Shown: one piece after another, positions 1-51,954 of the stretch
How the letters are laid out: every line of letters begins with the position of its first letter
How positions within the stretch are numbered: position 1 is the stretch's first letter
DNA from: a virus
Length of the DNA stretch: 64,000 nt
Virus record (IMG/VR): IMGVR_UViG_3300003702_000965
Span: 1-64,000 of that record
Direction: 5' to 3' (one strand)
Program-made: the position numbers and the translations under genes
Notes under the pieces: generated by a model
Databases searched by the model: none
Told to the model about the DNA's origin: nothing
What the model saw: only the letters and a program-made list of their open reading frames with translations

Positions 1-2400
1 AAAGGACAAACTGGTGCACAAGGAGGAACGGGCGCGCAAGGTGGAACAGGTCCAACTGGTCCTAAAGGACAAAAAGGCGCGACTGGTGCACAAGGTGGAA
101 CAGGTGCTCAAGGCGCTAAAGGTGCAACCGGTGCACAAGGCGGAACTGGTCCGCAAGGAGCTAAAGGTCAAAAAGGTCAAAAAGGTGCAACTGGTGGAAC
201 AGGCCCAACAGGCGCACAAGGTCCTAAAGGACAAAAAGGTCAAACTGGTGCACAAGGTCCAACAGGCGCGCAAGGCGCTAAAGGTCAGAAAGGTCAGAAG
301 GGAATTGAAGGTAAGGGAAATAATATAACATGGGTTGTTACTGGCAGTACTGCTGTAATTTCAGATGATAATCAGGATTTTACCAGATCTGGCGGTGGTA
401 GTGGTTGGACCTTGGGAATTGGTTCGGTTGAAAAATGGCAAAGTTCTGGCGGTTCAATAGGCGCAACGCTTAGTTTTAAAGCTTACGGCGCTAGCGGTCA
501 GTATATTATGATCGGATTTACTGACACCGTTACGACCTCAAGCGGCGCTTATGGTGACATTGATTTTGCTTGGTATTTAAATAACACTAGCTCAAACATA
601 TACGAAAATGGAAGTAGTATTGGAAACTTTGGAGGTTTTGTAAACGGTACCCAATTTGATATTGTATATGATGGATATAATGTTAGATATTATATGGACG
701 GCACATTAAAGAGAACGGTTGCTAGAGGCGACTTTACTTTTTACATAGACTCTAGTCTTTACAATAACACCAACATGGTTAAAGACATCCATTTCAGTCT
801 TCATGGTGCCAAAGGCCAGAAAGGTCAGAAGGGTGCAACAGGTGCACAAGGTCCGCAAGGGGCACAAGGTCCGCAAGGTGCCAAAGGTCAGAAAGGTCAG
901 AAGGGTACAACTGGTGCACAGGGTCCAACAGGCGCGCAAGGGCCTAAAGGACAAAAAGGCGCAACTGGTGGAACAGGTCCAACAGGCGCTCAAGGAGCTA
1001 AAGGTGCAACCGGTGCACAAGGCGGAACTGGTCCGCAAGGTGGTACTGGTCCGCAAGGAGCCAAAGGTCAAAAAGGTCAAAAAGGCGTAACTGGTGGAAC
1101 AGGCCCAACAGGCGCGCAAGGGCCTAAAGGACAAAAAGGTGCAACTGGTGCACAAGGCGGAACTGGTCCGCAAGGTGGGCAGGGTCCGCAAGGAGCTAAA
1201 GGTCAAAAAGGACAAACTGGTGCACAAGGTGGAACGGGTGCGCAAGGTGGAACAGGTCCAACTGGTCCTAAAGGGCAAAAAGGACAAACTGGTGCACAAG
1301 GTGGAACTGGTGGAACAGGTCCAACAGGTGCGCAAGGGCCTAAAGGACAAAAGGGTGCAACTGGTGGAACAGGTCCACAAGGTGGAACAGGCGCTCAAGG
1401 CGCTAAAGGTGCAACTGGTGCGCAAGGTGGAACGGGTGCGCAAGGTGGAACAGGTCCAACTGGTCCTAAAGGGCAAAAAGGGGCAACTGGTGCACAAGGT
1501 GGAACTGGTGGAACAGGTCCAACAGGTGCGCAAGGGCCTAAAGGACAAAAAGGTGCAACTGGTGCACAAGGTGGAACAGGTGCACAAGGTGGAACAGGTC
1601 CGCAAGGTGGAACAGGTCCGCAAGGAGCTAAAGGCGCAACAGGTTCACAAGGAGGAACAGGCTCGCAAGGTGGAGCAGGCCCGACAGGTCCTAAAGGACA
1701 AAAAGGACAAACTGGTTCAACTGGTTCGCAAGGAGGGTCAGGCCCACAAGGTGCGACAGGGCCTAAAGGCCAAAAAGGTCAAACTGGTTCAACTGGTTCA
1801 AGTGGTGGAAGTGGTCCTACTGGTCCTAAAGGTCAAAAAGGTGCGGGCGGCGGCGCGACTTGGACTAACACTGTACCTTCTCCTTACTATGTCGATTTTT
1901 ATACTTCTAGTCCGTATAATCCGAGTACTAATTACGGGAGGTTATACGGTTCGGGCTATGCTACTTTGCCTTATTGGAAAAGTTATTCCTCCGCATATAC
2001 TGTATATATTTACTCTGACGAGAGGATTAAAGAAAACATTACTACCTTCGATAAGTCTGTAGCATCAGCTTGGGTTAAAGGCACTGCTATATACAATTTC
2101 ACATTTAGAGAAGATTCCGGCGGAGTAGATGCTGTAGAACTTTATGGAGAAGGATATTCAAAAGACGTACCCAGAATTGGGTTCATGGCTCATGAAGTAA
2201 TAGCAACCATAACTGTTGACGGAAAAAGTCCAAACAACTTAGCGTCGGGAGAAAGGAACGCTGTTGACGAGGAAGGAAAAGTCCTTGGCCAACAAGTTGA
2301 CGAAGGTCGACTGGTGCCAATATTGTGGGCCGCTTTGCAAGATTCCATAGCGAGAATAGAAACTTTAGAGACGAAAGTAACAGCCTTAGAGAATAGTTAA
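1..2400 (+). CDS. Collagen-like tail fibre with C-terminal peptidase S74 intramolecular chaperone (5'-truncated)
   Basis: Frame 1 is open from base 1 ([10 protein letters not shown]...) to TAA at 2398-2400, so the track start at 412 is internal. Two Gly-X-Y blocks flank a beta-rich globular domain (~310-804). The C-terminus has [10 protein letters not shown]...IGFMAHEV...[11 protein letters not shown] plus a coiled coil, typical of S74 chaperones. Confidence 0.9.
4..309 (+). repeat. Collagen Gly-X-Y block 1 (34 triplets, open at window edge)
   Basis: Uninterrupted [18 protein letters not shown]... triplets read directly. Confidence 0.95.
805..1839 (+). repeat. Collagen Gly-X-Y block 2 (115 uninterrupted triplets)
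   Basis: Runs from [12 protein letters not shown] to GPK GQK; 1035 nt with a recurring GPKGQKG unit. Confidence 0.95.
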
Positions 2401-6647: not shown

Positions 6648-6935
6648 ATGGATGCTGATCCAAAAAGGGTAAAGGAGTTGATGTCTTTTCAAATACATCG
6701 GAATATTGTTAATTTATACAAGAGGTATTTGAATCTTCTAGAAGACGTCAGAAGAGACCATATTTCGCTACTATCCAAAGTCGAAGGGAAAACCAACAAA
6801 GAGTTTGCCAAAAGTATAGACTACTTTGACGCTGAAAAGTATAATTACTACAGAAAAAAGGTCCTAGACTCAGGAAACGAAGTATTTAGGGACATAGAAA
6901 AAACATTAGAATATTTAGAAATTAGAATCAAATGA
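6648..6935 (+). CDS. Hypothetical helical protein
   Basis: ATG 6648 preferred over the track start 6603, which overlaps the GTGTAT motif and a purine-rich leader. Confidence 0.7.
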   Translation: MDADPKRVKELMSFQIHRNIVNLYKRYLNLLEDVRRDHISLLSKVEGKTNKEFAKSIDYFDAEKYNYYRKKVLDSGNEVFRDIEKTLEYLEIRIK

Positions 6936-7852
6936 AATGGGTACATGAATTCCAAGTAAATAGGACAAAAGAGGTCGAAATCTCCGAAACCAAGACTGGT
7001 GAAGAAGGAGAGGAAATAACGACGAAAAGAAAAGAGGAAAAGGTCATTCCCGTCGATTTCGCCTTAAGAAAACCGAACAGGAAAATATATGATGATGCGG
7101 AGTTATTTTATGGAGTCACCTTGTCCAAAGGCATAAAGGCTGGTCTGCTCACAAAAACACAACTAGCCAAAAGATATGATAATGATGGAGGCCCATTCTC
7201 GAATGATCAAAAAACAAAATACTCGGTTTTGATGTTGAACTCGTTCGAAAAAGAAAATGAAATTCAAAAATTTCAGCTGAATTTAGACAGCTTACCCGAA
7301 AGCGAAAAATCAGAAAAACTAACACAATCTCTTATGGAGTTAACAGAGTTAAGAGCTGAGATGAGGGATTTTGAGGTTTTTCACGCCGCTATATTCGACC
7401 AAACAGCCGAAGGTAGAGCGAAAAACATGGTGATTATGTGGTGGGTTTTAAATGTTGCCTACTGGAAGAAGGAAGAAGGAGAAGAGTTCGCGCCGCTTTT
7501 TGAGGGTTTAAATTTCGAAGATAAGTTGGATTTTTACGACGAAATGGAGGAAAAGGAAGATTCGTTTTGGGACGAAGTGATTAGTAAATTAGCTTATTTT
7601 ATAGGATTTTGGTATAACGGAAAAGCTTCTACTCCAGAGGAATTTAAGCAGATCGAAAAATATTTCAACGCCGGAGTGAAAGAAAATGAAGAAGACTCGG
7701 AAGAGCCAGAAGAGCTAGAAGAGCCCAAAGAACCCGAAGATCTAGAGGATATAAATTGGAAGCCTGAAAAGCCCAAAGAACCAGAAAAGCCCAAAGAACC
7801 AGAAGAGCCCCAAAAACAAGACGACAAAGGACAGTCTGACGAGAAAAATTGA
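6932..7852 (+). CDS. Putative tail assembly chaperone with acidic EPEKPK-repeat tail
   Basis: 306 aa between tube and tape measure; ATGA-coupled; low-complexity EEPKEPE/EKPKEPE repeats at ~7700-7812. Confidence 0.55.
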   Translation: MKWVHEFQVNRTKEVEISETKTGEEGEEITTKRKEEKVIPVDFALRKPNRKIYDDAELFYGVTLSKGIKAGLLTKTQLAKRYDNDGGPFSNDQKTKYSVLMLNSFEKENEIQKFQLNLDSLPESEKSEKLTQSLMELTELRAEMRDFEVFHAAIFDQTAEGRAKNMVIMWWVLNVAYWKKEEGEEFAPLFEGLNFEDKLDFYDEMEEKEDSFWDEVISKLAYFIGFWYNGKASTPEEFKQIEKYFNAGVKENEEDSEEPEELEEPKEPEDLEDINWKPEKPKEPEKPKEPEEPQKQDDKGQSDEKN

Positions 7853-8859
7853 AAGACGAAATAAGCAGGCTCAGACATCTTTATAAAGATATTATCAATG
7901 GGTATTCATACGTACCAGAAGGCAAAATTTATGTAAGGCATCTCAAGGAAAAGGACGTTGGGGAAATCGAGGAGAAAAGGCTGAACCTAAAAAGGCAAGC
8001 AATGGAAGAGGGGCTTGAAGATGAAGATGAAAAAATTAAGCTTTTAATAGAAAATGAAATATGGTCGTATGAAAAAGAGAACGACATAAATAAGCTCAAA
8101 GGAGAAATCGAAACACTTCAAGAGACCAGAGGAAAACTGGTTTTAGGCAAGCAAATCAAACAAATCAAAAGCAAAATAAAGAAAAAGGAAAAGCTATATT
8201 CTGACCTAATGAACGAAAGGGTCTCTCAGGTAGGTTTCACGGCAGAAACTTACTCCGACAAAAAGATCAACGAAGAAGTAGTAAGAGTTTTATTTTCCAA
8301 AGACAAGGAACTTTCAACCCCATTTTTCTCTAAAGAGGAATTCGAAGAGTTAAGCACTCCAGATTTGGACGCCTACACCACGTTATATACATCAGTAAAC
8401 TTACAATATTCGGAGAAAATAATAAAGAAAATATCGATATGTCCGTTTTTTTTGAATGCCTTTTTTGTGTGTGAGAATAATTCTAACCAGTTTTTTGGAA
8501 AACCGGTAGTAGAGCTTACCAATTATCAAATAGATGTATTTTCTTACGGAAGATATTTTAAGGGGATTATGGCTGAATGCGAAAGGCCCCCCAAGGATTT
8601 GCATGATGACCCAGAAAAACTTATTGAATATTATGAACTAGCTAGAAGATCTAAGGAAGCCAAAGAAAAGAGGCAAAGCGGAAGCAACAAACAAAGTGAA
8701 TTTATGGGGTCCACTGTATTTGGAGCCTCTAAGGAAGAGCTTGTATCTATAGCGGGAGGAGAAGGAGGCGGTGGCGAATTAGTAGATTTATCTAGGGAAG
8801 TAGAAGGTTCCGGAAAGGATTTGGGTTTAAATGAGTTTCTGAAAATGCATAAGAAATAG
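7849..8859 (+). CDS. Putative second tail assembly chaperone
   Basis: 336 aa coiled-coil protein with TTGA overlap start, directly before the tape measure. Confidence 0.55.
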   Translation: MKDEISRLRHLYKDIINGYSYVPEGKIYVRHLKEKDVGEIEEKRLNLKRQAMEEGLEDEDEKIKLLIENEIWSYEKENDINKLKGEIETLQETRGKLVLGKQIKQIKSKIKKKEKLYSDLMNERVSQVGFTAETYSDKKINEEVVRVLFSKDKELSTPFFSKEEFEELSTPDLDAYTTLYTSVNLQYSEKIIKKISICPFFLNAFFVCENNSNQFFGKPVVELTNYQIDVFSYGRYFKGIMAECERPPKDLHDDPEKLIEYYELARRSKEAKEKRQSGSNKQSEFMGSTVFGASKEELVSIAGGEGGGGELVDLSREVEGSGKDLGLNEFLKMHKK

Positions 8860-8892: not shown

Positions 8893-11800
8893 ATGGCAGC
8901 TAAAGGAGATATAGGCTTAGATGTTTTCGCAACGAGACCCTCGCTGCGGAAGTTGCAAAGAGAGCTAAAGCGCTCTACTGAAACGGTAGAGATCAAGGGA
9001 CTTAGCGATTCAGAAGTAAGGAAAAAATTTAAGCAGCCATTAGGTAGAATTAAAGGCGACCTTGGAGAATTCCAAAAATCCATGGACGCTTCTAATGCCC
9101 GTGTTATTGCGTTCGGAGCTTCTGTTGCTATTATTAATGGCGTAGCTAGTGCTTTTAAAGGTGCCGCAAAGGCGTCAGTTGAAGTAGAAAGCGCGCTGGC
9201 TGATATAAATGTAATACTCAATACCACTACCAAAGGTCTTCAAAAGTTTGGTAGCGAGCTTTTCGAGATAGCGAGAAATACTGGTCAAAGTTTCAAGGTG
9301 GTAGCTGAGGCGGCGGGAGAGCTTGCTAGACAGGGCTTGGGGATGGAAGACACCCTTAAAAGAACCAGTGACGCTCTTATTTTAGCCAGATTATCTGGAA
9401 TGGATACAGTAGATGCTGTAAACTCCTTAACTGCTGCAGTTAACTCGTTTTCTAAATCAGCATTAACTTCTGCTGAAATAGTTAATAAATTAGCTAACGT
9501 TGACGCTGCTTTCGCCGTTAGTTCGGCGGATTTGGCGGAAGCAATTAAACGTGTCGGTAGTAGCGCCTCTTCCGCTGGAGTAAGCATGGATGAGCTTATA
9601 GCGATTGTTACTACAGCTCAACAAACAACCGCAAGAGGCGGAGCTGTTATAGGTAACAGCTTCAAAACTATATTCACAAGGCTCCAAAGACCAAAGGTTT
9701 TAGATCAATTAGAGGGTATTGGCGTAGCCACGAAAAACGCAGCGGGAGAAATGTTACCTCTAATGAGCGTTTTGAAGGGTTTGGCAGGGTCTTTTGACAA
9801 ACTAGAAGATACTCAAAGGGCTCAAATAGCAGAGTTAGTTGGTGGTGTTTTTCAAGTTAACATTCTGAAAGCTGCATTATCTGATTTAGGTCAGGAATAT
9901 GGCGTCTACGGAAGGGCTTTAGAAACATCCATAACATCCACAGATCAAGCTATTCTAAGAAACGAAAAGTTAAATGAAACTTTATCATCTTTAATAAACA
10001 GGACTTTGGTAAACGTTCAAAGAATTGGCGCGGAGATTGGCGATTTAGGAATGGCCCCTACGGGTAGAATGCTTTTGGAGGGAATCAACAAAAATCCAAT
10101 TTTTGGGATAGAGGATTTTGATCTAAAAGAAGCGGATGGTGTTGGCGAAAAGCTTGGCGCTGGGATTGTTCGTGGATTGGGGGCTTTCATGAAAGGCCCC
10201 GGGTTAATATTGGCTGGAGCCGGATTCTTGAAGCTTTTCGGTAAATTAAGAACATTTGCTCTAGACGCATTTAAGGGTATATCAGGGCTAAATGTAGAAT
10301 CAAATAAAAGAAAAGCTATAGAAGAGAGAATAGGTGTTGTTTTAGCTGATAATAATAGGTTAATGCGAAACTTTACCGAGGGGACTATCACTGCTACAAA
10401 AGCCGCGGAGGAGCTCTTGCGCGCAATGGCTTCAAGAGACGTGCAGACTTCAAGAAAAAGTAGTCTCATCAGACAAACGGCCAGACAGATGAGTGACTCC
10501 TTCAACATCGATGATGGGATGGTTACCGTCAAAGGGACAAAGAGAAGATCCAAGGCTTTTGGGTATGTCCCGAATTTCAATAAACAAGCTGGCGAAAGAC
10601 TTGAAATGCTTATGGCTGGCTACAATCCGTCAGACATAAAGAGTGCTAGAATAACGCAAACTAGAATTCATAAGGGAGATGGTACTAGTTTTTTGGGGAC
10701 CATGAATTCGGCTGAGAAGAAGCGGACCACAACAAACGCATACGGACATAAAGCCACTTGGATTATCCCACCGAAAAGCTCATCTGCGTATGGAAGATTT
10801 ACCGATAACGTTCCCAATTTTGCTGGCCCGAGAGCATTTGAAAAACTGGATACTCCAACTGGTGTGTACTGGTCGATGATGTTAAAAAAATACGAACAAC
10901 AGCTTGATTTAAGTAAACCAGATAGTGTTATCGGCGCTCAGATGCAAAAGTTAATACAAGAAGAAAAGAATTTAGATTGGAGAGTGGAACCGAACCCTAA
11001 AAAAAGGGCCATCAAAAAGAAAAAATGGGCGAAGGAAGAAAAGAAGCTACCGGGGATGAAATCCGGTTTTCAGGGAACACAGCTTGGTCAGTCCTTCAAA
11101 AGAATGAAAGCCCGAGAAAAATCAGGGGAAGCTTATAAAACGACTGGTTCTATACAAGAGCAAATTTTAGGTATGCTGCCGGGGCCAGAGGGAATGAAGG
11201 CAGGGTCAAGGAGGAAAAAGCCTTTAGCTATATCGTCCGGTAGACATGAAGGAGCTCCAAAGGACATTATAGGTGGTTTAGCTACGCAGTACCGAGCTCC
11301 TCTGCACCCCGGAAAACTCGATAGAGCGGTAAAAATAGGTTTTCCTTCGTACGTGAAGAAAGTAGCTTTTACGAAAGGTGTTTGGCATCAAGCGTTAAAC
11401 CAAACAGAAAAAGATATTTTGAGTACATCCCTTAATAAAGCGGCAGGCGACGAAGCGGCCATGGGTCAGGTTTACGGAAGGGTCTACGAAGCTATCATTG
11501 AAGGAATGACCATGACCAGAAAGAAAAAGGGGAAGTTTGGGTCTGCCGCTTTGGATTATCCAGCTGGGACAGAAATGAAAGAGGCATTTCATAGGCATTT
11601 TGATCCAGAGTTCTTGACCCGGGTTAAGGCAGAAGGAGGAGAGCATAAAAGCGGAGAGTTTGAGTGGGATAGATATCAGAAAAAGCAGGGGGGGATATGG
11701 GGGAAGATGCTAACAGACCCCGGGTATCGGAAAGGCGGCAAAACACCGGAGAGAATAACGCTGCCGCCCGAAGGGGAGGCGCTGCTAAACGAACTTGTCG

Positions 11801-14800
11801 CTAGCGGCCAAGTAAGAGAAAAAACTTTTTACAAAGGTTTGAAAGCGGGAGGTTTTGTCCCTAATTTTTCCAAAAAAACCGCCATGGATGCCGAGAGAAA
11901 AATGGGCGGAGATCCAATGTATTCTGATTTGCCGTTTCCGCATGTTAGAGACAAAAAAACACAAAAAAGATTTTCAGATGTATTAAGAGATCACCCCGAA
12001 GGATTGGGAGCGGCCATATCCAATTCACTGAGCGTACAAAAAAATATTCCTTCATTTGCTCCGCCAATGGGTTCCGGGATAGGCAAGTTGTTAAAGGGTC
12101 TTGGTATAAACGTTATGGGGGATGTATTGGGTGGAGCTAAGAGGGAGATTAAAGAAAGCAAGTATGGAAAAAAGGTACTTGGTACGAAATCTTTGGAAGC
12201 CGAGATCGCTGATTTAGAAGAGGAATTTGAGGGGTTTGTAAAGTCGCTTACACGACACAATAAGGAAATTATTAAAGCTTCTCTCAATTTACAGAAATTT
12301 GAGGCAAAGACGTTTGGAGTCAAAGGAGTTTCCAAGATGGGGACAATCCCCGAGTTTGGGGATCGGACAGATAGATCATTTTTGGATAAAGAGAGGGAAA
12401 AAGCCGCCTTCTCCTCAGAGGCGGCGAAGATTACGGCCGACAAGAAGCGGCTAGATCTGGCGGCTGATAAGCTTGCGCATAGACGAAGGGCGGACAAGGC
12501 GGAAGTTATGGCGGATACAATACTAGCGAAAAAGGAAGAGTTACAAGCTAGACCCCAAGGCGCAGTTGGGAGCAGAATGGAAAAGATAAAAGGAGGTCTA
12601 TTCGCTGCCTCGTTTGCTGTCCCAACGGCGACGGGAATTATAAGCGAATTTATGGGTAGAGACAGCTCTATGGGAAAAGGTGCTACGATTTTAGGGGAAT
12701 CTTTTTCCGCCGCTGCTGGAGTTGCTTCGATTCTTCCGGGGCATTTGGGTTTGATAGCCGGGGCTGCTGTTGGGTTAGGTTCCGCTATTGGAAAGTTCAC
12801 AAATGCGGCGCTAGAAGTTGGTAAAGAGTTAGGGAGGACGAAGGAAGAGCTTCAGCAATCTTTACAAAATTTACAAGACGCTTCGACTAGGTATTTTGAT
12901 ATTGCATCCAAGTTGGATGACGCGGTTAAAAGTGGAGCTTCTGGGGATTTAATTACTAGATTGGGTGAAAAGCTTCAAGACACTCTGGCTAAATTAGATC
13001 CAGCTACTCAAGCGATAGTGACTTCTTCCTTTACTTTAGCCGAAAAGCAAGACGCTTTAGGGAAAATAATAGAGGGTCAGGGAAAAGAATTAAAACAAAT
13101 TCAATTAGCGGAAAACTTGGCGAAAATGATGAACGAGGCAAGGGGTAGTGGTTTTGTTGCTTTTTTCAAGATGCTTGGAGGTATGGCTCCGGGAGGCTTG
13201 AGCCCCACTGAAGCTGGTAGGAATTTTGAAGCTTTAGATTCTAGAAGCGTAGGGGGGGCAGCTTCGGCCCTTTTTGGTTCGTTAGGGGCGAAAAAAGTAA
13301 GAACCAACTTAGGAGTTATTTCGGGAGCTGGGGACAAAGATACCCTTGCCGGAGTCCTAGAGGATTCTTTAGGCGCTACCTCAGATTTAGCCCAGATGGT
13401 TAGGCTTCTTACCGAAGAAGACTTCGAAGCCTTGAGACTGAAGTTGATGATGTTAGGAGAGGAAGCTCAGAGAAACGCTGATCTAGCGGAAGTAAACATA
13501 GAAACTCAAAAAAGGTATAATGCAATAATGACAGAGGCTAACAAAGGTCTGAAAATTGCCTCAGGTAACTTGTTAGACATGCAGAAAAGACTTATAGAAA
13601 CGTTTGTTTTTAATAGGGAGATGAGAAGCAAGAGATTCTTTAATGAAATTGATATTACCATAGCCAAGTTTGACAAGTTGTTTGGAATTGCGTCATCTAC
13701 AATGGGCTCCCTGCAGAAGGCTGACGCGAACTTTAGAAAGAAAAGATTTAATGCAGACGTAGGTTTTCAGAAAAAAATAATTTCCGCACAAAACACCTTT
13801 GTTGGGAGCATGACAGATGTGTCTGGTGAAACGGCAAGAATAGTCAAAGGAAAAAATCAAAAGGCTAAGATGCTCAATAGGACCAGAGATCAGGTCAATT
13901 TTTCGCAACAGATAATAAGTCTTTTAGAGCAGTTTGATTTGAATCAAGATCCGGAGTTGTTGAAAAAATCATTAAAAGACGCAGTGAAAAACGACTCAAC
14001 CGCGCTCGAGCAAGAAAGAATGCTCATAAATATAGACAAAAATTTCAATACATTCCTGCAACAATCCACAAAAGCCCAAATAGAAAGAGAAAAGCAGACC
14101 AAGCTAAATCAAGCTATATTGGATATAGATAGAGAACAGGCCAGACTCATGGCCGCAGGGGGAATTAAGTCCGTATTGGACCCAGCTTCGTTCGATACCC
14201 TTATTGACAAATTTACTGATGCATCAAGAGATATGCTTGTTGGCGGAGGATTCACTGGGCAAGGGGTAAATAGTACAATGGCTGGGTCAGGAGCTTTAAA
14301 TATGCTCAAGCTTTTAAGGGAGAACGGCATGATTGGAGCTGGAGCGGGAACAATTCCTCCTAATTTAAGAAAACAGGCCGTGGACGCGAGAATAGCTCAA
14401 ATCAATGAACTTACAGAAGGCTTGATATTTTTAGGCCAAAGAACTGGAAATCCTTCAATGGTTCGAGAAGCTCAAAATATAAACGCAAGAGAAATAGCCG
14501 AGGCAAACATAGCGGCATTTGAAGACCCGATGGCTGCTTCAGAGAAGCAGATTACGAGGATTTCGGAGCTAATGAAAGATCTTAAAATTGATTTCAATAG
14601 TCATGAGAGCAGTATTGAAGACATATTAAATGCTAACGTAAAATCAAATAGAGAATCTTTTCTTACGTTGGATAAATCTTCTGCGCAACTTTTGGCGGCT
14701 TCAGAGGTATTGCTTCAGTTTCAGATAGCTAGAGAGTTTGATACAGCCGCTGAGCATGCTCAAATAAGGCTGTCAGACAAACAATATAATCAAGCTGTAA

Positions 14801-15885
14801 ATAATTTAACCAAAGACACAGATAGATTACGAGAAGGTTTTCAAGGCATGGCTGAGTTCGAGGGTCCCGATGGGGGGTCGAAAGATAGAAGAGATGCCAG
14901 AGCGGCGTTTTCTAGAGCTATGGGTTATCAAGCCTTTGATCCCCATAACTTTTATCAGACGTCGAAGCTCGGCACGGGCTGGAGCGGGCCCGGAGAAATG
15001 TCGATGCAAAAGTTGGGTCAAGATTTTTTCAAAGATAAAGATGTTCTTGACGCTTTAAAAGCCGTCTCGGGGCTTCCGGGAGGGCTGAAAATGGGCAATC
15101 TTACGACTGGAGGTAGGACCGAGATGGACGAGTTCAACAAAAACATGAGTATATTAGCTCACGAAATTGCCATAAGAAAAGGTCTAGACGATTCCAGAGA
15201 GATAGAAGTTGGGCTAAAAGAGGCGATATTTGGGCGGGAGATAGAAACTAATATGCTGCACGCCTTAAGTGAGTCCACAGATGCAATGTCCAGTGTTATA
15301 AAAACCTCTATTCAGGACATCATAGATGCTGGCCATTTAAAGGGAACTTCAGAGCGAGAGCTTAAGGTAAAGGGAAAGGAGAGGCGAGAAGCTGAGGACG
15401 AAAGAGTATCTAGAACTTCTCAAGCTACAGGCTTTGGAATAACAGACGAGGACGAACATAGGAGAAATCTCCAAGAGCAGACAATAAATGTCCTTAAAGC
15501 GTCTGGGGAAACGATGCAAGCTATGAGAAGGTCTCAAGGCGAGTTTAAAGCTTCATTGAAAGAAGTGTTTACCGTCGAAACACCTATTGGAACAGCTATT
15601 CAAGACTTCGTAGCTGCAGTAAAAGATCCGTTGGATATAAAGATAGGAGAACACACAATTACTGTGAGAGGTGATGAACAGGCTAGAGAGGAGCTGAAAG
15701 AGCATCTGAGCGCAGCAGTGAAAGAGGCCGCGAGAGAAGCCGTTACCTCCGTTGACAGCGTCTACGGAAGGGCTTTAGAGAGGATGCTGCCGCAAGCGCT
15801 TAATGTAATAATAAACCAGCTTCCGGCGGGTGTTCGCGGGTCTACGACGAACGCAGTTAATGCGGTGATAATCGGACCGAACTAA
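8893..15885 (+). CDS. Tail tape measure protein (TP901-like N-terminal domain), 2330 aa
   Basis: N-terminal motifs AAGELARQG...DAVNSLTAAVNSF...VDAAFAVSSADLAEAIKR...GGAVIGNSFKTIFTRL; long helical and Gly/Ala-rich hydrophobic segments. Confidence 0.92.
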   Translation: MAAKGDIGLDVFATRPSLRKLQRELKRSTETVEIKGLSDSEVRKKFKQPLGRIKGDLGEFQKSMDASNARVIAFGASVAIINGVASAFKGAAKASVEVESALADINVILNTTTKGLQKFGSELFEIARNTGQSFKVVAEAAGELARQGLGMEDTLKRTSDALILARLSGMDTVDAVNSLTAAVNSFSKSALTSAEIVNKLANVDAAFAVSSADLAEAIKRVGSSASSAGVSMDELIAIVTTAQQTTARGGAVIGNSFKTIFTRLQRPKVLDQLEGIGVATKNAAGEMLPLMSVLKGLAGSFDKLEDTQRAQIAELVGGVFQVNILKAALSDLGQEYGVYGRALETSITSTDQAILRNEKLNETLSSLINRTLVNVQRIGAEIGDLGMAPTGRMLLEGINKNPIFGIEDFDLKEADGVGEKLGAGIVRGLGAFMKGPGLILAGAGFLKLFGKLRTFALDAFKGISGLNVESNKRKAIEERIGVVLADNNRLMRNFTEGTITATKAAEELLRAMASRDVQTSRKSSLIRQTARQMSDSFNIDDGMVTVKGTKRRSKAFGYVPNFNKQAGERLEMLMAGYNPSDIKSARITQTRIHKGDGTSFLGTMNSAEKKRTTTNAYGHKATWIIPPKSSSAYGRFTDNVPNFAGPRAFEKLDTPTGVYWSMMLKKYEQQLDLSKPDSVIGAQMQKLIQEEKNLDWRVEPNPKKRAIKKKKWAKEEKKLPGMKSGFQGTQLGQSFKRMKAREKSGEAYKTTGSIQEQILGMLPGPEGMKAGSRRKKPLAISSGRHEGAPKDIIGGLATQYRAPLHPGKLDRAVKIGFPSYVKKVAFTKGVWHQALNQTEKDILSTSLNKAAGDEAAMGQVYGRVYEAIIEGMTMTRKKKGKFGSAALDYPAGTEMKEAFHRHFDPEFLTRVKAEGGEHKSGEFEWDRYQKKQGGIWGKMLTDPGYRKGGKTPERITLPPEGEALLNELVASGQVREKTFYKGLKAGGFVPNFSKKTAMDAERKMGGDPMYSDLPFPHVRDKKTQKRFSDVLRDHPEGLGAAISNSLSVQKNIPSFAPPMGSGIGKLLKGLGINVMGDVLGGAKREIKESKYGKKVLGTKSLEAEIADLEEEFEGFVKSLTRHNKEIIKASLNLQKFEAKTFGVKGVSKMGTIPEFGDRTDRSFLDKEREKAAFSSEAAKITADKKRLDLAADKLAHRRRADKAEVMADTILAKKEELQARPQGAVGSRMEKIKGGLFAASFAVPTATGIISEFMGRDSSMGKGATILGESFSAAAGVASILPGHLGLIAGAAVGLGSAIGKFTNAALEVGKELGRTKEELQQSLQNLQDASTRYFDIASKLDDAVKSGASGDLITRLGEKLQDTLAKLDPATQAIVTSSFTLAEKQDALGKIIEGQGKELKQIQLAENLAKMMNEARGSGFVAFFKMLGGMAPGGLSPTEAGRNFEALDSRSVGGAASALFGSLGAKKVRTNLGVISGAGDKDTLAGVLEDSLGATSDLAQMVRLLTEEDFEALRLKLMMLGEEAQRNADLAEVNIETQKRYNAIMTEANKGLKIASGNLLDMQKRLIETFVFNREMRSKRFFNEIDITIAKFDKLFGIASSTMGSLQKADANFRKKRFNADVGFQKKIISAQNTFVGSMTDVSGETARIVKGKNQKAKMLNRTRDQVNFSQQIISLLEQFDLNQDPELLKKSLKDAVKNDSTALEQERMLINIDKNFNTFLQQSTKAQIEREKQTKLNQAILDIDREQARLMAAGGIKSVLDPASFDTLIDKFTDASRDMLVGGGFTGQGVNSTMAGSGALNMLKLLRENGMIGAGAGTIPPNLRKQAVDARIAQINELTEGLIFLGQRTGNPSMVREAQNINAREIAEANIAAFEDPMAASEKQITRISELMKDLKIDFNSHESSIEDILNANVKSNRESFLTLDKSSAQLLAASEVLLQFQIAREFDTAAEHAQIRLSDKQYNQAVNNLTKDTDRLREGFQGMAEFEGPDGGSKDRRDARAAFSRAMGYQAFDPHNFYQTSKLGTGWSGPGEMSMQKLGQDFFKDKDVLDALKAVSGLPGGLKMGNLTTGGRTEMDEFNKNMSILAHEIAIRKGLDDSREIEVGLKEAIFGREIETNMLHALSESTDAMSSVIKTSIQDIIDAGHLKGTSERELKVKGKERREAEDERVSRTSQATGFGITDEDEHRRNLQEQTINVLKASGETMQAMRRSQGEFKASLKEVFTVETPIGTAIQDFVAAVKDPLDIKIGEHTITVRGDEQAREELKEHLSAAVKEAAREAVTSVDSVYGRALERMLPQALNVIINQLPAGVRGSTTNAVNAVIIGPN

Positions 15886-15891
15886 AAAATA

Positions 15892-18621
15892 ATGTTAGAT
15901 TTTCAAAACGCAACTCTTCTTTCATATAATCATACGAACAAATTCGGTGGTGGCGAACTGTTCAGGCTGGGTTCCGTAAAAGAACTGACAGTCAGGGGCT
16001 TTTTAAAGTCCAAAACTGAAAACAAAGATTTAGAAGGAGTCAAAGAGGCGCAGACAAAAATTCAAGATTTCATCGATTTAGCCAACGATTGGGAAGACAT
16101 AAGAATAAACAACCATAATTTCGGAAAAGGAAGAGTCACAAGCCTTGATTTTCTGTCATCACCGGATACATTCACAGATCATATAAGATTTGCAGAATTT
16201 GAAGCGACGATAGAGATCCCGTCATCGACCAATGGAGATGAGCTGTATAATTTAAGGGGGGAGACGTATAGGGGCATATTGTCTGCCATAGATAGGACTT
16301 CCAGCGCTTTGCAGGATTTTGATGAGTCTTTCAGCTTCGAAATAGAAGAAGATAATGGGTATTCATATTCACATGATCTTACAATAAATTTTATTAGCGG
16401 CGTTCTGCCTGAGATGATTACTAGCGGAGCTAGGTATGATTCCAACAAAGAATATTTTATTAAAAATTTAGAAAGCGACGAAGAGTGTTCATTTACTCAG
16501 GGGGCTTCTGAGTCTTTGAGGAGAATAGACACTTCAGCGGATATCATATCAAGCGATGGAAACTTCATTCCAACAGATACGTCAGCTATAGACATAGCGT
16601 TATCGAGCAGAATAGGCAGTACGGCGTCTAGCTCGAGTTACAGTTCCTCTTATCTGCCTGCTAACGCAATTGACATCGAAGTAGGGGATCCCGTGGTGGA
16701 AACAGACTTCGTCGCTAAGACCAAGGATTCTGGAGAAGATAACTATCAATGGTGGGAAATAGATTTAGGATGTAATGTTTATGATTTAACGAAAGTTGTC
16801 ATAAGGAACAGAGACGCTTCCGCCTCAACAAAACTATATTTAAATAACTTTAGGATTAGCGTTTTTGAAGAAGGCTATACCAAAAGTCAAAACGTTACAG
16901 CTGCCGTTTTAGCAACGTCATACGCAAAGTATTTAACTTATAGTAGCGACCATTACGACACTGACGACACCTATCCAGACAGGGAGCTCGCTGTAAGTCT
17001 GCCAGCTGGAGTTTACGGGAGATACCTAAGAGTACAGTGGTTAAGCATGACTACTACTGGGGGCGGCACGACTAGGATTCCCGTTTCCGCGCTAGGTTTT
17101 TCAAATTTCGAATTATATAGTAGCAGGTCTGTAGTTAAAGTATACAATTCCGAGTCGTCAACAAACGACCCAGTAAAAACTTCTGTCAAATTAATAAAGA
17201 CTAACCCCATAGCTCAATCAAAAAAAGCTGCTAGAAGAATATTCGAAACTAGACCAGCCTTGGGTTTTATCGATGCAAAATATTCTGGATATTATCAGAC
17301 GACTGGCCAAAGTTTCTTTAGCGAAACCTACGATTTATCTAATCATACTTGTTCCTTTACAAAGAACTTAAAGTTTGCCGCTAATACAGGAGATAAGTAC
17401 TCGGTTAGTAGGTCTCATTCTTTGGAAATTGCGGAGAATGGAATAGCTACCATAACAGAAGAAGGAAGCGTCAAGGGTAGGATTAAGCCTTTCTTTTCCT
17501 CCGCAAGAGAAGGAGCTGAGACGGAAATAAACAACTCTTATTCTAGGGTAACTGGAATTTTTTCAGGTTATTGTGCGGGATATAATAATAATGCTTGGTT
17601 TTTACCTTGGACTTCAGATAGCGAGATACCGGGACACGACAATTTGGGTTCAGGGATCAACCATGGGCCTTCTGGAATGTATCAAGACATATTCGATAGG
17701 CCAATTGATATATCTAGATCCTATGCTAGTGGGGAATCTAGGGTGGATTATTCTGTCAAATATTCAAATAACCCTAGAATAACTGGTCAGTATCAATTTG
17801 ATAGGAGCGTATCCTTCTCTAAAAACGAAGAAAATATTTTATCTGTAGTCGAAGCCGGAGATATAAAGCCCTATTTTTCCAAAAGATTTAAATACACGCA
17901 GACAAACCCCAATAACGTCGACGACCCATATGGCTTGAAAAGTTTTTATAAACAAAAAGAACATAAAATCAAAGAGAGATGTGAAAGGGCTTATTCTCAA
18001 TATTTGAATAGAATAGATTATCTGAGCCTATATCATAAAGGATTAACGCTGGAGCCGGTATCAACGAAGCTAAGCCATCAAGCTTACGGAAAGTCGTTGA
18101 CGTATACCAAAACGTTCTCAGACGACAAAACCATAGTGGATACGAATAATTTAAAATCTTTTTCTCTTGATTTTTCGGATTCTCCTCCAATATATTCTAG
18201 CAAAGATTATATAATACCTAGATTTGGAGTTGTGTTTAACCAGAAAGGCAATTATGCGACTTTAGGCAAGAGAACAGTGTCTTGCAGGGGAACGTATAAA
18301 AGATTAAACACTTCCAACATTTTGAAGATATATGAAGGAGGAAATTACGTTACTTCAAATCTTCTGTCGGTGCCAAACTTAATGAAGGCTCTGAACTATA
18401 TGAGGGGTCAATGCGTTACAAAAGCTCGCGAGGTTTGGGCTGATTATGGAATAGACCCCGGTCAACACCCAACCTTCCACGTTTCTGATATGAGTTATAG
18501 CTTCGGTTCCGACAGATCTTTGACGTTAAGTATGGATTTTGTCTTTACCGGTTCCAAGGCATTCAATGAACTAGCCTATAGAGATGGTGGGATTAATAAT
18601 TGGGAAGGAAATACGCCATAA
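15892..18621 (+). CDS. Tail-tip protein with inserted F5/8 (discoidin/F-type lectin-like) domain
   Basis: 909 aa after the tape measure; QWWEIDLG...KVVIRNRD...LNNFRISV...GRYLRVQ...FSNFELY at ~16690-17120. Confidence 0.65.
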   Translation: MLDFQNATLLSYNHTNKFGGGELFRLGSVKELTVRGFLKSKTENKDLEGVKEAQTKIQDFIDLANDWEDIRINNHNFGKGRVTSLDFLSSPDTFTDHIRFAEFEATIEIPSSTNGDELYNLRGETYRGILSAIDRTSSALQDFDESFSFEIEEDNGYSYSHDLTINFISGVLPEMITSGARYDSNKEYFIKNLESDEECSFTQGASESLRRIDTSADIISSDGNFIPTDTSAIDIALSSRIGSTASSSSYSSSYLPANAIDIEVGDPVVETDFVAKTKDSGEDNYQWWEIDLGCNVYDLTKVVIRNRDASASTKLYLNNFRISVFEEGYTKSQNVTAAVLATSYAKYLTYSSDHYDTDDTYPDRELAVSLPAGVYGRYLRVQWLSMTTTGGGTTRIPVSALGFSNFELYSSRSVVKVYNSESSTNDPVKTSVKLIKTNPIAQSKKAARRIFETRPALGFIDAKYSGYYQTTGQSFFSETYDLSNHTCSFTKNLKFAANTGDKYSVSRSHSLEIAENGIATITEEGSVKGRIKPFFSSAREGAETEINNSYSRVTGIFSGYCAGYNNNAWFLPWTSDSEIPGHDNLGSGINHGPSGMYQDIFDRPIDISRSYASGESRVDYSVKYSNNPRITGQYQFDRSVSFSKNEENILSVVEAGDIKPYFSKRFKYTQTNPNNVDDPYGLKSFYKQKEHKIKERCERAYSQYLNRIDYLSLYHKGLTLEPVSTKLSHQAYGKSLTYTKTFSDDKTIVDTNNLKSFSLDFSDSPPIYSSKDYIIPRFGVVFNQKGNYATLGKRTVSCRGTYKRLNTSNILKIYEGGNYVTSNLLSVPNLMKALNYMRGQCVTKAREVWADYGIDPGQHPTFHVSDMSYSFGSDRSLTLSMDFVFTGSKAFNELAYRDGGINNWEGNTP

Positions 18622-38869: not shown

Positions 38870-39230
38870 ATTTTTCTAAAATCAAATATATATTATAGAT
38901 AAACAGGGTCAAGATTACGACTAACGGGAAATATAGCGGCATAATGAATACGACAGCTACGCTCATCCAAAAGGTTAAGCAAATAGGGCATGATACTAAT
39001 TTTGAAAAAAAGTCATCGTTCGTAATTGACAGAAACTCAGAGTAATTTACACTAACTTTAGCTTGATTAACAAAATTTTCGTATTCTTCCAAGTTAAAAA
39101 GCTCTTTGATTATCCTTATTTTATCGAGCTTTAATACTTTTATATATTCATAAAAAACATTAGTTTTAAGCCAAATTATAAGGACTAGAGAATAAACAAA
39201 TGGAAGCAAGATTATAGCCCCGTTATCCAT
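38859..39230 (-). CDS. DUF1360-like membrane protein
   Basis: Hydrophobic ends and LVSCPICLTFW (CxxCxxxW); ATG 39230 preferred. Confidence 0.6.
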   Translation of the reverse strand: MDNGAIILLPFVYSLVLIIWLKTNVFYEYIKVLKLDKIRIIKELFNLEEYENFVNQAKVSVNYSEFLSITNDDFFSKLVSCPICLTFWMSVAVVFIMPLYFPLVVILTLFIYNIYLILEKYAR

Positions 39231-40632
39231 CTTTTGTATTGCAAAAAGACACAATCACATATCTTGTGCCGCTGGTGGTAGGTCTAGCTCCATGCTTATG
39301 AGTTATATTACCGGGATGCATAACCACTTCTCCAATGTCGTTTTGGACGAGTATTTTTTGCCTTCTAAAATATGTTCCGCTCCCTTCAAAATCCCTTCCA
39401 CGTTGATTTAGGTTAGCTAGAAAGGTCAGCTTCGAATAGTCGTGGTGAAGCGATAGGTGCGACTGCTTGGATGGTATATATTTTATAATGAAGTTTTCCC
39501 CCGTTAAGGATGCCCAGTTTGAGCCTTCCAGCGCGTATAGAAATTCAGCGGCAGGGTAGCAGTGCTTCTTCAAAACTTGTTCATATACATTATTGATTCC
39601 CACTGTATCTAATAACATGTCAGTTGTAGGATAAAATTCATGCCTTTTCTCTGTCCACTCCCCCTCGGTTTCGCATAAATCAATCATTTCTTTACAGAAA
39701 ATTTCATTGAAAAGGGGCCATTTGAAAATGTTTGAGTATCCGGGTTCTCCCAATTCATCTGCCATCAATTCCCATTCGTGGGAGCGAGCCTCTATTCTCA
39801 GGTATTTTTCTTCCCAAGCTTTTGGGTCTTTGTCGTAGTCTCTTATCGACAAGTCTCCTTCCGTTGGCTGACCTTGTGGGCTGTCGAATCTAGATGCTAT
39901 ATTTCCTTTTAAGGGTTCTATTTTTTTTGTCTTGATTGGCTTAAATTCTTCGTAGCCGAAGTCTTCTTTCCCTGACTCCCCCTTTTTGGTCACCTCCTTG
40001 CTTATGGTGACGCCGGGTACTGGGGAAATGAGAGGCTGTGAAAATTTAGACTTCTCTCCATCTGCTCTTATGAAAGCTACCAATGTTAGTCTTCCGTCAT
40101 ACAAATCATTACCAAAGTATTCGTCAGACTTGTGAAAGAAGAGAGGGTTGTAGATCATACATCTGTTATATACGTTTTCTACTGTTTCTCTTACGTCATA
40201 CCATTTTGGATCTCCATCTGATTCTTTATATTCTTTAGACTTTTTATTTGCGCTTTCTTTTAAGTCGTAAATTATAGTGCCTGAATTGGGCTTTGGGTCA
40301 GGAGTAAGGTAAATTAAAGCAACATGAGTGAAGTCTTGATCCATCTTGTCGTCATGAACCCAGCTATCCCCGTCTTTTGAAGTACACAATTGAAACATTA
40401 CCTCAAAATAAGACTCTTTACCTTGCGGCCAGCCCATAACTTCGTATATTCTCCCAGTAAACTCATAATAAAGTTTTTCGCTGAGAGTATGATAAAAAGG
40501 AGTTCTAGTTCCGGGCCAATTGCCCCCAGATGGATGAGTTTCTTTTGGAAAAAACTTCTGAGAAAGGGCGAACTTCCTTACTTTATCAGGATCTGGGAAA
40601 AAATTTTCGAATACAAGCTCTTTGTCACTCAT
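39223..40632 (-). CDS. Tandem 2OG-Fe(II) dioxygenase: N-terminal DUF6445-like domain plus C-terminal procollagen lysyl hydroxylase (PLOD)-like domain
   Basis: N-half: ENFFPDPDKVR, WPGTRT, HDD...FFH...GRLT. C-half: PLFNEIFC, YPTTDM, FIIKYIPSKQSHLSLHHDYS, FEGSGTYF, HPGNITHKHGARPTTSGTRYVIVSF. Confidence 0.85.
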   Translation of the reverse strand: MSDKELVFENFFPDPDKVRKFALSQKFFPKETHPSGGNWPGTRTPFYHTLSEKLYYEFTGRIYEVMGWPQGKESYFEVMFQLCTSKDGDSWVHDDKMDQDFTHVALIYLTPDPKPNSGTIIYDLKESANKKSKEYKESDGDPKWYDVRETVENVYNRCMIYNPLFFHKSDEYFGNDLYDGRLTLVAFIRADGEKSKFSQPLISPVPGVTISKEVTKKGESGKEDFGYEEFKPIKTKKIEPLKGNIASRFDSPQGQPTEGDLSIRDYDKDPKAWEEKYLRIEARSHEWELMADELGEPGYSNIFKWPLFNEIFCKEMIDLCETEGEWTEKRHEFYPTTDMLLDTVGINNVYEQVLKKHCYPAAEFLYALEGSNWASLTGENFIIKYIPSKQSHLSLHHDYSKLTFLANLNQRGRDFEGSGTYFRRQKILVQNDIGEVVMHPGNITHKHGARPTTSGTRYVIVSFCNTKDG

Positions 40633-43632: not shown

Positions 43633-43969
43633 ATATACATATGAGAATCCGGAGACAGGAGAAACTGTAAACGTCTTCCAAAAAATAGACGACGATCATG
43701 AATACTCAAAAGACGGACTACAATACAACAGAGTCTTCACGGTCCCTAACGCTTCCATAGACTCGGACCTGTCCTCCCTTTCCGAAGAAGCCTTCGTTAG
43801 AGCTACGGCCAAGAAGAAAGGTACCTTGGGTGATTTATGGGATGCTTCAAAAGAAGCCAGTCTAAAGAGGGAGAAAACTTACGGGAAAGATCCCGTTAAG
43901 GAGAAATATTTCAAAAAATATAGCGAAAAAAGAAAAGGAGCTAAGCATAAAGATGACCCGTCCAGATGA
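43625..43969 (+). CDS. FmdB-like zinc-ribbon family protein lacking cysteines
   Basis: MPEYTYENPETGETVNVFQ matches the MPxYxYxCxxCG pattern without the Cys residues. Confidence 0.55.
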   Translation: MPEYTYENPETGETVNVFQKIDDDHEYSKDGLQYNRVFTVPNASIDSDLSSLSEEAFVRATAKKKGTLGDLWDASKEASLKREKTYGKDPVKEKYFKKYSEKRKGAKHKDDPSR

Positions 43970-44972: not shown

Positions 44973-44973
44973 T

Positions 44974-51953: not shown

Positions 51954-51954
51954 A

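Follow-up and report, generated by a model that had tools for sequence, protein, structure and literature searches.

A tape measure protein (TMP) gene in the 64-kb window (the whole stretch of DNA that was analysed, 64,000 nucleotides) encodes an otherwise helical ruler that carries a three-module cassette at aa 557-1056, with a copy of one short junction peptide at every module edge. Comparison of related TMPs indicates that this peptide is the site at which modules are added, lost, replaced and reordered in related phages.

The tape measure protein gene and its cassette

The gene (8893..15885, + strand) encodes a protein of 2330 aa (P0001) with a match to PF10145 at aa 127-314 (E 2.1e-31; score 109.8 bits, cutoff 33.2), the only domain above the Pfam cutoff. 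Thirteen of its 14 PHROG matches were to 'tail length tape measure protein'. Hydrophobic Gly/Ala-rich segments were found at aa 66-92, 428-457 and 1232-1303, and the cassette lies between the last two of these. Upstream lies a collagen-like fibre gene, and the product of the gene directly downstream has 909 aa and an F5/8-type-C domain; the two ORFs immediately upstream of the TMP gene gave no family match. Judged by its sequence, ORF 8893-15885 is the tail TMP of an uncultured marine phage. With PF10145 above the gathering score, a length of 2330 aa and hydrophobic Gly/Ala-rich segments, it has the traits of TP901-1-type TMPs (PF10145, PhageMin_Tail), which it resembles in N-terminal domain, length, hydrophobic segments and, probably, position in a tail block. 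It differs from them by a 500-aa non-ruler cassette with a repeated junction peptide.

The conserved N-terminal ruler part (aa 1-556; 8893..10560, + strand), which contains the PF10145 domain, shares 65-67% identity with the nearest relatives (P0002-P0008), and the C-terminal ruler part (aa 1057-2330; 12061..15885, + strand) about 30%. The central stretch (aa 557-1056) had been described as distinct in composition, and it was indeed richer than both flanks in Pro (6.0% vs 1.3% in the N part and 1.9% in the C part), aromatics (8.6% vs 4.7% and 5.0%) and Lys (12.0% vs 7.0% and 7.9%). Its pI is 9.9, compared to 6.4 for the C part.

The junction peptide in P0001 and in related proteins

P0001 has four junction copies, all on the + strand. 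The strict consensus is satisfied by J1 (G-Y-V-P-N-F-N, aa 557-563, 10561..10581) and J3 (G-G-F-V-P-N-F-S, aa 986-993, 11848..11871). The other two are degenerate: J2 (N-V-P-N-F-A, aa 639-644, 10807..10824) is without G-F/Y, and J4 (N-I-P-S-F-A, aa 1051-1056, 12043..12060) has Ser replacing Asn, in a column that reads Q-G-[IV]-P-N-F-A in relatives.

An earlier note on this DNA had quoted five strings (GYVPNF at aa 557-562, NVPNFA, GGFVPNFS, NIPSFA and TIPEFG), and all were found in frame at the positions it gave. It had also placed the motif in the central stretch only; all four copies of [VI]P[NS]F do fall within aa 559-1055, at spacings of 81, 349 and 63 aa, close to the spans of ~83, ~350 and ~64 aa that it had reported. 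Its weaker fifth motif did not hold up: TIPEFG (aa 1151-1156; 12343..12360, + strand) is a non-conserved look-alike outside the junction system, with TIPEF kept in 0/11 aligned relatives, and is probably due to chance.

From composition, 0.030 copies of [VI]P[NS]F would be expected in the 2330 aa of P0001. Among 20,000 shuffles of the protein, 19,380 had no copy, 613 had one, seven had two and none had three or more. A six-frame search of the 64-kb window found the consensus-form peptide only in ORF 8893-15885. Junction residues had pLDDT < 50 in the AF2 model, compared to 89-96 in the adjoining module M1; as modelled, the peptide is an unstructured linker abutting folded modules.

Across 135 related proteins we collected 618 junction copies, with the family consensus (A/S)-x-G-(F/Y)-(I/V)-P-N-F-(A/S). 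Position frequencies were 91% for G(-2), 84% for F/Y(-1), 93% for I/V(0), 82% for A/S(-4) and 70% for A/S(+4), the P, N/S and F/Y positions being preset by the search pattern. Two to 11 copies were present in 76 of the 77 parsed IMG/VR TMP genes, and all 27 proteins of one relative set carried 2-8 copies, against 0.04-0.16 expected. The first copy, at aa 557 in P0001, has a family median of 548. Copies number one more than modules, one standing at every module edge. P0001 shows the traits of this cassette-TMP family, with at least two copies after about aa 540, M1 following the first copy and M3 closing the cassette.

Tandem junction copies just 8-35 aa apart occur in relatives (P0051 x3, P0082 x3, P0126 and L072), a spacing that is odd for cleavage sites. 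One relative, L069, is the sole TMP with M1 but without M2 and M3, and its peptide copies are the decayed forms GHIPTA, GFVPAG and GFTPAA; this decay is a single case.

At least 549 IMG/VR contigs belong to the clade, and at 50% identity the cassette alone falls into 117 clusters. Among 50,697 GenBank phage records none matched the cassette, and a cultured relative was not found. A literature search for the junction motif returned no description or name.

Modules of the P0001 cassette

Module M1 (aa 564-638; 10582..10806, + strand) is predicted by AF2 to be a compact alpha/beta domain of two helices, four strands and one helix (pLDDT 89-96 over model residues 20-95). It shares 54-59% identity with the nearest relatives, with E568, N605, E608 and G618 invariant in alignment A1. 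Directly following the first junction copy, it also aligns with 33 relatives at 23-42% identity (alignment A5).

Module M2 (aa 645-985; 10825..11847, + strand) is Lys-rich, fast-evolving (20-26% identity with the nearest relatives) and partly helical, partly disordered, with pLDDT < 50 at aa 745-806 and 62-85 at aa 806-874. It had no matches in Pfam, PDB sequences or Atlas. A PD-(D/E)xK nuclease, with the signature E ... D ... (D/E)-x-K on a restriction-endonuclease-like fold, was considered for M2; the pattern G-x-x-F-E ... D-F ... (D/E)-x-K ... K is kept in alignments A2, A3 and A4. The M2 of L013 gave a confident model (pLDDT 83) with no PDB match (best Foldseek E 0.34, best VIA Z 4.7), and the BFVD rows that name peptidases for this model were non-significant (E 0.8-5.5, TM 0.09-0.12). 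The P0001 M2 matched the L013 M2 profile weakly (hhalign probability 23%, P 9e-4, 48 columns).

Module M3, here in its variant M3b (aa 994-1050; 11872..12042, + strand), carries the signature E-R-x-M-G-G-x-P ... P-F-P-H-V-x-D ... R-D-H-P-E-G and shares 60-65% identity with the nearest relatives. Its AF2 confidence was low to moderate (42-72). A jackhmmer search from the P0001 M3 found 99 of the 212 family proteins; M3a or M3b is present in 161/165 full-length family members, and in 131 of 172 cases M3 stands last among the modules, with the C-terminal ruler following it.

The description of these modules as non-helical was borne out for the four strands of M1, but M1 also has three helices, and M2 and M3 are largely helical or disordered in the AF2 models. 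Neither sequence nor structure searches recognised an enzyme or a known fold in the modules of P0001, whose cassette is a minimal M1-M2-M3 set without a recognisable enzyme.

Module exchange and enzyme-like modules in relatives

In the insert regions, 55% of BLAST homology-block ends fell within 5 aa of a motif, compared to 6.8% for random placement (19,716 ends), a statistic that counts many related pairs, so that the events are not independent. Inter-motif segments from 165 full-length proteins formed 181 clusters, 127 of them singletons. Module order also differs between relatives, with C-G-H in P0036, C-H-G in L063 and G-C-H in P0113. The proposal that the motif marks a true module boundary agrees with this family-level variation, in which copy number (0-14) and inter-motif content differ among proteins that share a conserved N-terminal part of 540 aa. 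Invariant, collinear segments among relatives had been named in the earlier note as what would speak against it, and at short range this was partly what we saw, since the P0001 cassette is collinear with those of its 8 nearest relatives.

All 11 Pfam matches in relatives (E <= 1e-3) fell wholly inside single inter-motif intervals: six GNAT rows, AAA_33, PcfJ, two HATPase_c and DUF7178. The GNAT rows of P0036 and L066 have identical coordinates. A P-loop module was found in 12 proteins, with its Walker A box 37-39 aa past the motif. Several enzyme-like domains stand on one polypeptide in relatives such as L066 (P-loop and GNAT) and L071-L073, but not in P0001. By these domain matches, the inter-motif cargo of some relatives appears enzyme-like (GNAT, P-loop kinase, GHKL ATPase, PcfJ and DUF7178). 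The suggestion that the TMP delivers swappable effectors gains from these relatives and finds no counterpart in the P0001 cassette.

Possible roles of the junction peptide

On balance we consider it probable that the junction-fenced modules of P0001 ride with the TMP and that the peptide is their common handle for one partner. The cassette, with its alpha/beta M1, basic fast-evolving filler M2 and small conserved M3, would most likely be carried within the TMP in the lumen of the tail. It would leave the tail together with the TMP at infection, as TMPs are established to be ejected. The single partner of this shared handle may be a protease, which would release the modules, or else a surface of the tail or host that serves for docking.

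It is a tenable possibility that the peptide remains uncut and works in docking or as a hinge, being a short linear motif with a single binding surface, and that the modules remain tethered to the TMP. This surface may belong to the tail-tube lumen, a tail assembly chaperone, a neighboring TMP chain or a host protein. The peptide is unstructured in the AF2 monomer model, the short-spacer tandem arrays of relatives resemble avidity repeats, and the hydrophobic-Pro-x-Phe core resembles peptide-in-groove motifs and may be akin to the C-terminal tails of FtsZ and SSB. However, since no further protein encoded in the window has the peptide, there is no sign of a binding network. A precedent for tethered modules is gp96 of phage P23-45, as presented in passages of PMC10770324.

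We regard it as rather doubtful that the TMP is a true polyprotein, in which the peptide would be a protease or self-cleavage site and the TMP would be cut after assembly or ejection, freeing M1, M2 and M3 (and, in relatives, enzymes too). The presence of a copy at each module edge, in a flexible and basic linker, would suit this arrangement, as would the conserved small residues (A/S, G) beside bulky ones, which are seen at many cleavage sites, and the decay of the peptide in L069, where M2 and M3 are lost. Processing into units has been proposed for polyvalent phage proteins in passages of PMC5512222. Against cleavage, Pfam found no peptidase domain in the TMP or in the 52 other window ORFs scanned, nor in the relatives scanned; 8-9 conserved positions exceed what most proteases read, and cutting at the tandem copies would yield tiny peptides. 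For P23-45, passages of PMC10770324 propose that the TMP-fused enzyme remains with the TMP pore.

A structural role, which we think unlikely, would make M1-M2-M3 a built-in component of the tail machine, for example a plug, part of a membrane channel or a marker of register during tube assembly, with the peptide as a conserved linker and cargo restricted to the extra modules of larger relatives. The identity of M1 and M3 among the nearest relatives (54-65%), the wide occurrence of M3 and its usual place before the C-terminal ruler are consistent with this, as are the two flanking hydrophobic segments typical of TMPs and the lack of an enzyme signature in the P0001 cassette. Since M1 and M3 are near-universal and conserved, they may be structural tail parts instead of cargo. 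However, L069 retains a TMP without M2 and M3, and M2 evolves like filler or an arms-race part.

A more far-reaching proposal, and to our minds a quite improbable one, is that the whole TMP family is a tail-borne polyprotein, with the peptide as a self-contained processing and targeting signal. Every copy would be a point at which the chain is cut or unzipped after ejection, M1 and M3 would read the peptide, and the host would receive reshufflable acetyltransferases, kinases, GHKL ATPases and unknown folds (M2).

A DNA-level recombination signal, as also suggested in the earlier note, with the coding sequence as a short homology box, is very improbable: module exchange does fall exactly at the motif, but the four P0001 copies share only 8-17/24 nt and use different codons, and the junction residues are conserved although the proteins are only 20-40% identical elsewhere. 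Given the different codons, it is the protein that is under selection rather than a recombination site in the DNA, and the junction peptide is maintained at the protein level.

Comparison with known systems

The usual view of TMPs is of passive rulers in which no more than one wall-degrading activity is embedded. The family described here is a large uncultured clade that constructs its rulers as cassette arrays around one fixed junction peptide. Should the modules enter the host, there would be two compartments for delivering pre-made proteins, the capsid and the tail lumen, and the latter would come with its own grammar of module exchange. The peptide provides a simple search key for such cargo and renders the post-ejection fate of the TMP directly testable. 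Lambda gpH (processed to gpH*), T5 pb2 and the TMP of mycobacteriophage TM4 with its Rpf motif are cut in assembly or bear a cell-wall enzyme or motif, and all are expelled when the phage infects. To our knowledge, each of these has one cut or one embedded activity, with neither a repeated junction peptide nor an exchange of cassettes. The likeness of the P0001 family to viral polyproteins with repeated protease sites is one of layout only, a short conserved peptide at domain boundaries.

According to passages of PMC10770324, gp96 of Thermus phage P23-45 is a giant TMP fused to a virion RNA polymerase that is thought to enter the host together with it, a precedent for TMP-borne enzymes that reach the host; these passages describe one N-terminal enzyme and report no repeated junction motif or module swapping. 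In contrast, the modules of the P0001 family are internal, peptide-fenced and, in relatives, multiple, and Pfam found no RNAP family in P0001. Polyvalent proteins (Iyer et al. 2017, PMC5512222), in which the term 'tape measure' appears 0 times, are described in passages of that article as carrying several unrelated enzyme or effector domains on one polypeptide that is co-delivered with DNA, mostly packaged in the head, with zincin-like metallopeptidase domains predicted to carry out its processing. The cassette carrier differs in being a TMP, in having its units marked by a linker peptide and in that no peptidase domain was found by Pfam; P0001 itself has no multiple recognisable enzyme or effector domains. 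GNAT and ParB-like domains are common to the polyvalent proteins, as described in those passages, and to the cassette-bearing TMP relatives.

The tape measure protein and its repeated motif

The ORF at 8893-15885 (+), encoding 2330 aa, has a PF10145 domain (Phage-related minor tail protein; Pfam, 109.8 bits against a cutoff of 33.2) spanning aa 127-314. Of the 14 PHROG families that it also matched, 13 carry the annotation tail length tape measure protein, and we therefore assigned the ORF to a tailed phage as its tape measure protein (TMP), of the TP901-1 type. The earlier note had listed five motif strings in this ORF, and all were found at the correct coordinates and in the correct frame. 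The TMP holds four copies of the pattern [VI]P[NS]F (aa 559, 640, 989 and 1052), where 0.030 are expected, and none of 20,000 shuffles of the TMP sequence gave three or more copies; given this excess, the motif is not a chance pattern. Six-frame translation of the whole window showed the consensus form to be confined to the TMP ORF. The copies at aa 557 and 987 follow the strict consensus, the other two (NVPNFA and NIPSFA) being degenerate. A weaker fifth site, TIPEF (aa 1152), had been included as well, but none of the 11 relatives aligned has an equivalent site, and for that reason TIPEF was dropped as a motif copy.

The central stretch at aa 557-1056 was said to differ in composition from the rest of the protein, and it does differ from both TMP flanks, being richer in proline (6.0% vs 1.3% and 1.9%), aromatic residues (8.6% vs 4.7% and 5.0%) and lysine (12.0% vs 7.0% and 7.9%), with a pI of 9.9 where the C part has 6.4. 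When aa 531-1200 were compared with the entire TMP by BLAST, no significant repeat emerged beyond the short motif, the best match (E 0.013) falling in an unrelated helical stretch.

Conservation of the junction peptide across the family

A search with aa 530-1180 recovered 26 further proteins of TMP size, of marine and other metagenomic origin, and all 26 have 2-8 motif copies (0.04-0.16 expected). All 1.84 billion representatives were then searched without a profile (query aa 540-1070, E<=0.001), which gave 117 clusters; one of them, the database protein P0057, was rejected as a low-complexity false match. Another database protein, P0137, has no copy under the search pattern used. In total 618 copies were counted in 135 proteins, with the first copy at a median position of aa 548. 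The pattern fixed three positions (P, N/S, F/Y), so the conservation figures refer to the others: G at -2 in 91% of copies, F/Y at -1 in 84%, I/V at 0 in 93%, A/S at -4 in 82% and A/S at +4 in 70%. The family consensus of this junction peptide is therefore (A/S)-x-G-(F/Y)-(I/V)-P-N-F-(A/S).

Scanning IMG/VR with a single sequence found no relative, but an alignment-based scan did; at least 549 loci encode a TMP relative, among the 598 pattern matches listed. The TMP ORF was parsed in 77 of the 80 loci kept, and 76 of these TMPs have 2-11 motif copies (exactly four in 44). Cultured relatives were sought too, but no match was obtained by tblastn of the window cassette and the cassette of the related locus L013 against 50,697 GenBank phage records, and no prophage relative was found in 185,579 species genomes scanned with the family alignment A2. 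Short motif-bearing database proteins are mostly contig-end fragments and are uninformative on protein termini.

Anatomy of the cassette

The common layout consists of an N part of ~540 aa (PF10145), then modules M1 (~81 aa), M2 (~230-345 aa) and M3 (63-81 aa), each edged by junction peptides, and a C part of ~1000-1260 aa. The window TMP has exactly this layout and carries the minimal core cassette only, bracketed by two Gly/Ala-rich hydrophobic stretches (aa 428-457 and aa 1232-1303). Its identity to the eight nearest relatives is 65-67% in the N part, 54-59% in M1 and 60-65% in M3, falling to only 20-26% in M2 and ~30% in the C part. There are two sequence variants of M3: M3a, dominant in the major IMG/VR clade, and M3b, present in the window. 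M3a or M3b was found in 161 of the 165 full-length proteins, and in 131 of 172 occurrences no further module lies between M3 and the C part.

The earlier note had proposed structure prediction of the segments. This succeeded for M1, with poor or partial results for M2 and M3. The AF2 model of aa 545-1068, built from 51 aligned rows, had a mean pLDDT of 60.6. M1 (aa 564-639) was modelled with two helices, four strands and one helix (pLDDT 89-96). M2 was disordered in part (aa 745-806), with a helical bundle at aa 806-874 (pLDDT 62-85), and M3 was modelled poorly (pLDDT 42-72). Because they scored below pLDDT 50, the junction residues behave as a linker and not as part of a fold. A motif-like string, G-F-P-S-Y-V, lies within M2 (11332-11349, aa 814-819) and is conserved in the eight nearest relatives, with S/A-Y-P-N/G-F/Y-V in relatives; as it falls inside a modelled helix, it does not count as a junction. 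Complex prediction with three M1 copies and flanking peptides scored 0.00 against a mark of 0.42, which is no evidence either way on a trimer.

M1, M2 and M3 of the window are without a family, solved relative or fold match in these searches. Pfam returned noise only for four cassette pieces at E<=10, a 531-aa piece had no match among PDB sequences, and module profiles against PDB sequences reached best E values of 0.28 for M2 and 0.02 for M1, with none for M3. The ESM Atlas held no usable match for M2 or M1. With the window model (aa 545-1068), Foldseek gave no PDB match at E<=0.001, and VIA wide returned generic three-helix-bundle rows only (Z<=6.6, model residues 256-330). The M2 model of L013 (pLDDT 83.1) likewise had no match in PDB (Foldseek best E 0.34), no chain at Z>=5 in VIA wide (best Z 4.7) and no match in BFVD (best E 0.77). 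An HMM of the major-clade M2 matched 88 of the 165 full-length proteins, the window M2 not among them; jackhmmer from the window M2 gave 31 matches, and the union of the two covers 113/165. By hhalign the window M2 was linked only weakly to the major-clade profile (probability 23%, P 9e-4, 48 columns), which means that the L013 model may not apply to the window M2. A PD-(D/E)xK nuclease was considered for M2 because G-x-x-F-E ... D-F ... (D/E)-x-K ... K is conserved in alignments.

Modules are exchanged at the junction peptide

The proposal that the motif marks a module boundary and a site of module exchange was borne out by segment clusters, changes of order and the ends of homology blocks. 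Inter-motif segments of the 165 full-length proteins fell into 181 clusters, including 127 singletons. The same modules occur in different orders: M1-c-C-G-H-Q-V-M3b in the database protein P0036, M1-X-C-H-G-x-f-M3a at the IMG/VR locus L063 and M1-.-G-C-H-Q-r-f-M3a in P0113, G being a P-loop module and H a GNAT module. A P-loop module recurs in 12 proteins, in which the Walker A box follows the peptide at a distance of 37-39 aa. Among 19,716 BLAST homology-block ends in the insert regions, 55% lie <=5 aa from a motif, vs 6.8% under random placement, a figure that describes layout and is not a count of independent events, since many protein pairs are related.

All 11 enzyme-like Pfam hits in relatives (E<=1e-3) lie wholly within one inter-motif interval. 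They comprise GNAT acetyltransferase (L066/P0036, L063, P0095, P0113 and P0104), AAA_33 P-loop kinase (L071), PcfJ (L072), GHKL ATPase (HATPase_c; L073 and L080) and DUF7178 (P0054). In L066 the GNAT module spans aa 1182-1365 and a P-loop module aa 1005-1182, and the GHKL module of L073 spans aa 954-1318. A HIGH_NTase1 hit in P0121 was sub-threshold (21.6 bits against a cutoff of 27), overlapped a motif and was taken as spurious.

Several relatives depart from the usual arrangement. The peptide forms tandem arrays without an intervening module in P0051 (aa 1238-1340, a 32-aa unit three times), P0082 (aa 1672-1705, where a Lys-rich stretch has three copies at 14-aa intervals) and L072 (aa 2139-2160). 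The TMP of L069 (7474-13806, +), the sole motif-free one among the 77 parsed loci, has kept M1 and has neither M2 nor M3, its copies having decayed to GHIPTA, GFVPAG and GFTPAA. At L043 (12990-13110) the gene seemed to be split at the peptide, the frame stopping 35 aa past the cassette directly after a ten-A run, with the rest of the TMP encoded in a different frame; the break reflects a sequencing error or slippage and not a natural split.

Possible roles of the junction peptide

The data fit a peptide that serves every module edge as the same handle and is recognised by a single partner. Of what kind that handle might be, three readings were weighed, which are not wholly exclusive. TMPs leave the tail at infection, and precedents for other activities of TMPs include lambda gpH processing, T5 pb2 and the Rpf motif of TM4. 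It is possible, and we suggest it tentatively, that the peptide is an uncut docking or hinge motif, as the tandem arrays in relatives and its predicted lack of structure would favor. A known TMP-borne enzyme is also consistent with this: in P23-45 gp96 an RNA polymerase is fused to the TMP, and the authors of that study propose that the polymerase remains with the TMP pore (PMC10770324).

That the peptide is instead a cleavage site, and the TMP a polyprotein, seems somewhat unlikely. Two things speak for it: the layout of one copy per module edge, and the decayed peptide copies of L069, the single TMP keeping M1 without M2 and M3. However, a scan of the TMP and of 52 other window ORFs gave no peptidase domain, and tandem copies in relatives are only 8-35 aa apart. 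Multi-enzyme 'polyvalent proteins' are delivered with phage DNA, and in excerpts of their description metallopeptidase domains are credited with processing (PMC5512222); the words 'tape measure' have zero occurrences in PMC5512222.

Given the conservation of M1 and M3, the latter of which is almost always present, M1-M2-M3 of the window TMP may be a built-in tail part and not cargo, which we regard as rather improbable. Taken at the DNA level, the recombination boundary suggested in the earlier note failed: the window copies agree at no more than 8-17 of 24 nt and differ in codon choice, and the peptide is not a DNA recombination box.

Among the papers listed for the motif strings, none has a phage context, judged by title or abstract. 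Literature on polyvalent proteins with tape measure contained no TMP of this kind, by title or abstract, and among the papers listed on TMP processing none dealt with junction-peptide TMPs. TMP-borne enzymes are already known; in the layout described here the TMP is organised as an array of cassettes that share a single fixed junction peptide.

Genes surrounding the tape measure gene

Beyond the TMP the window is phage-like and mostly unannotatable. Upstream, the product of 412-2400 (+), 662 aa long, combines collagen triple-helix repeats (PF01391, E 3.6e-32) with an S74 'chaperone of endosialidase' domain at its C-terminus and is probably a self-cleaving tail fibre. G+C is 50% in the first 2 kb and ~40% elsewhere. 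Immediately 5' of the TMP gene, two ORFs of 306 and 336 aa (6932-8859, +) overlap by 4 nt, the first ending in an acidic P-E-K-P-K-E-P-E repeat; this is the usual place of tail assembly chaperones, yet neither matches a family. Immediately 3' lies the gene of a 909-aa protein (15892-18621, +) in which aa 245-390 match an F5/8 type C (discoidin) domain that binds sugars, and the seven large ORFs that come next (461-1003 aa) have no Pfam or PHROG family match.

Further along are genes for PhoH, class II ribonucleotide reductase, dUTPase, DnaB and primase, and a long run of sugar-modifying genes. The latter, an unbroken run of about ten at 43953-53079 (+), forms a glycan-synthesis island that is large for a phage. 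Five to six of its genes encode glycosyltransferases, and the run also includes genes for a methyltransferase, a GDP-mannose 4,6-dehydratase (E 2e-105) and an NAD-dependent epimerase. Two separate 2OG-Fe(II) oxygenase genes are also present, at 58177-58782 (+) and 39223-40632 (-), the second of which is fused to a DUF6445 domain and adjoins a dCMP deaminase gene.
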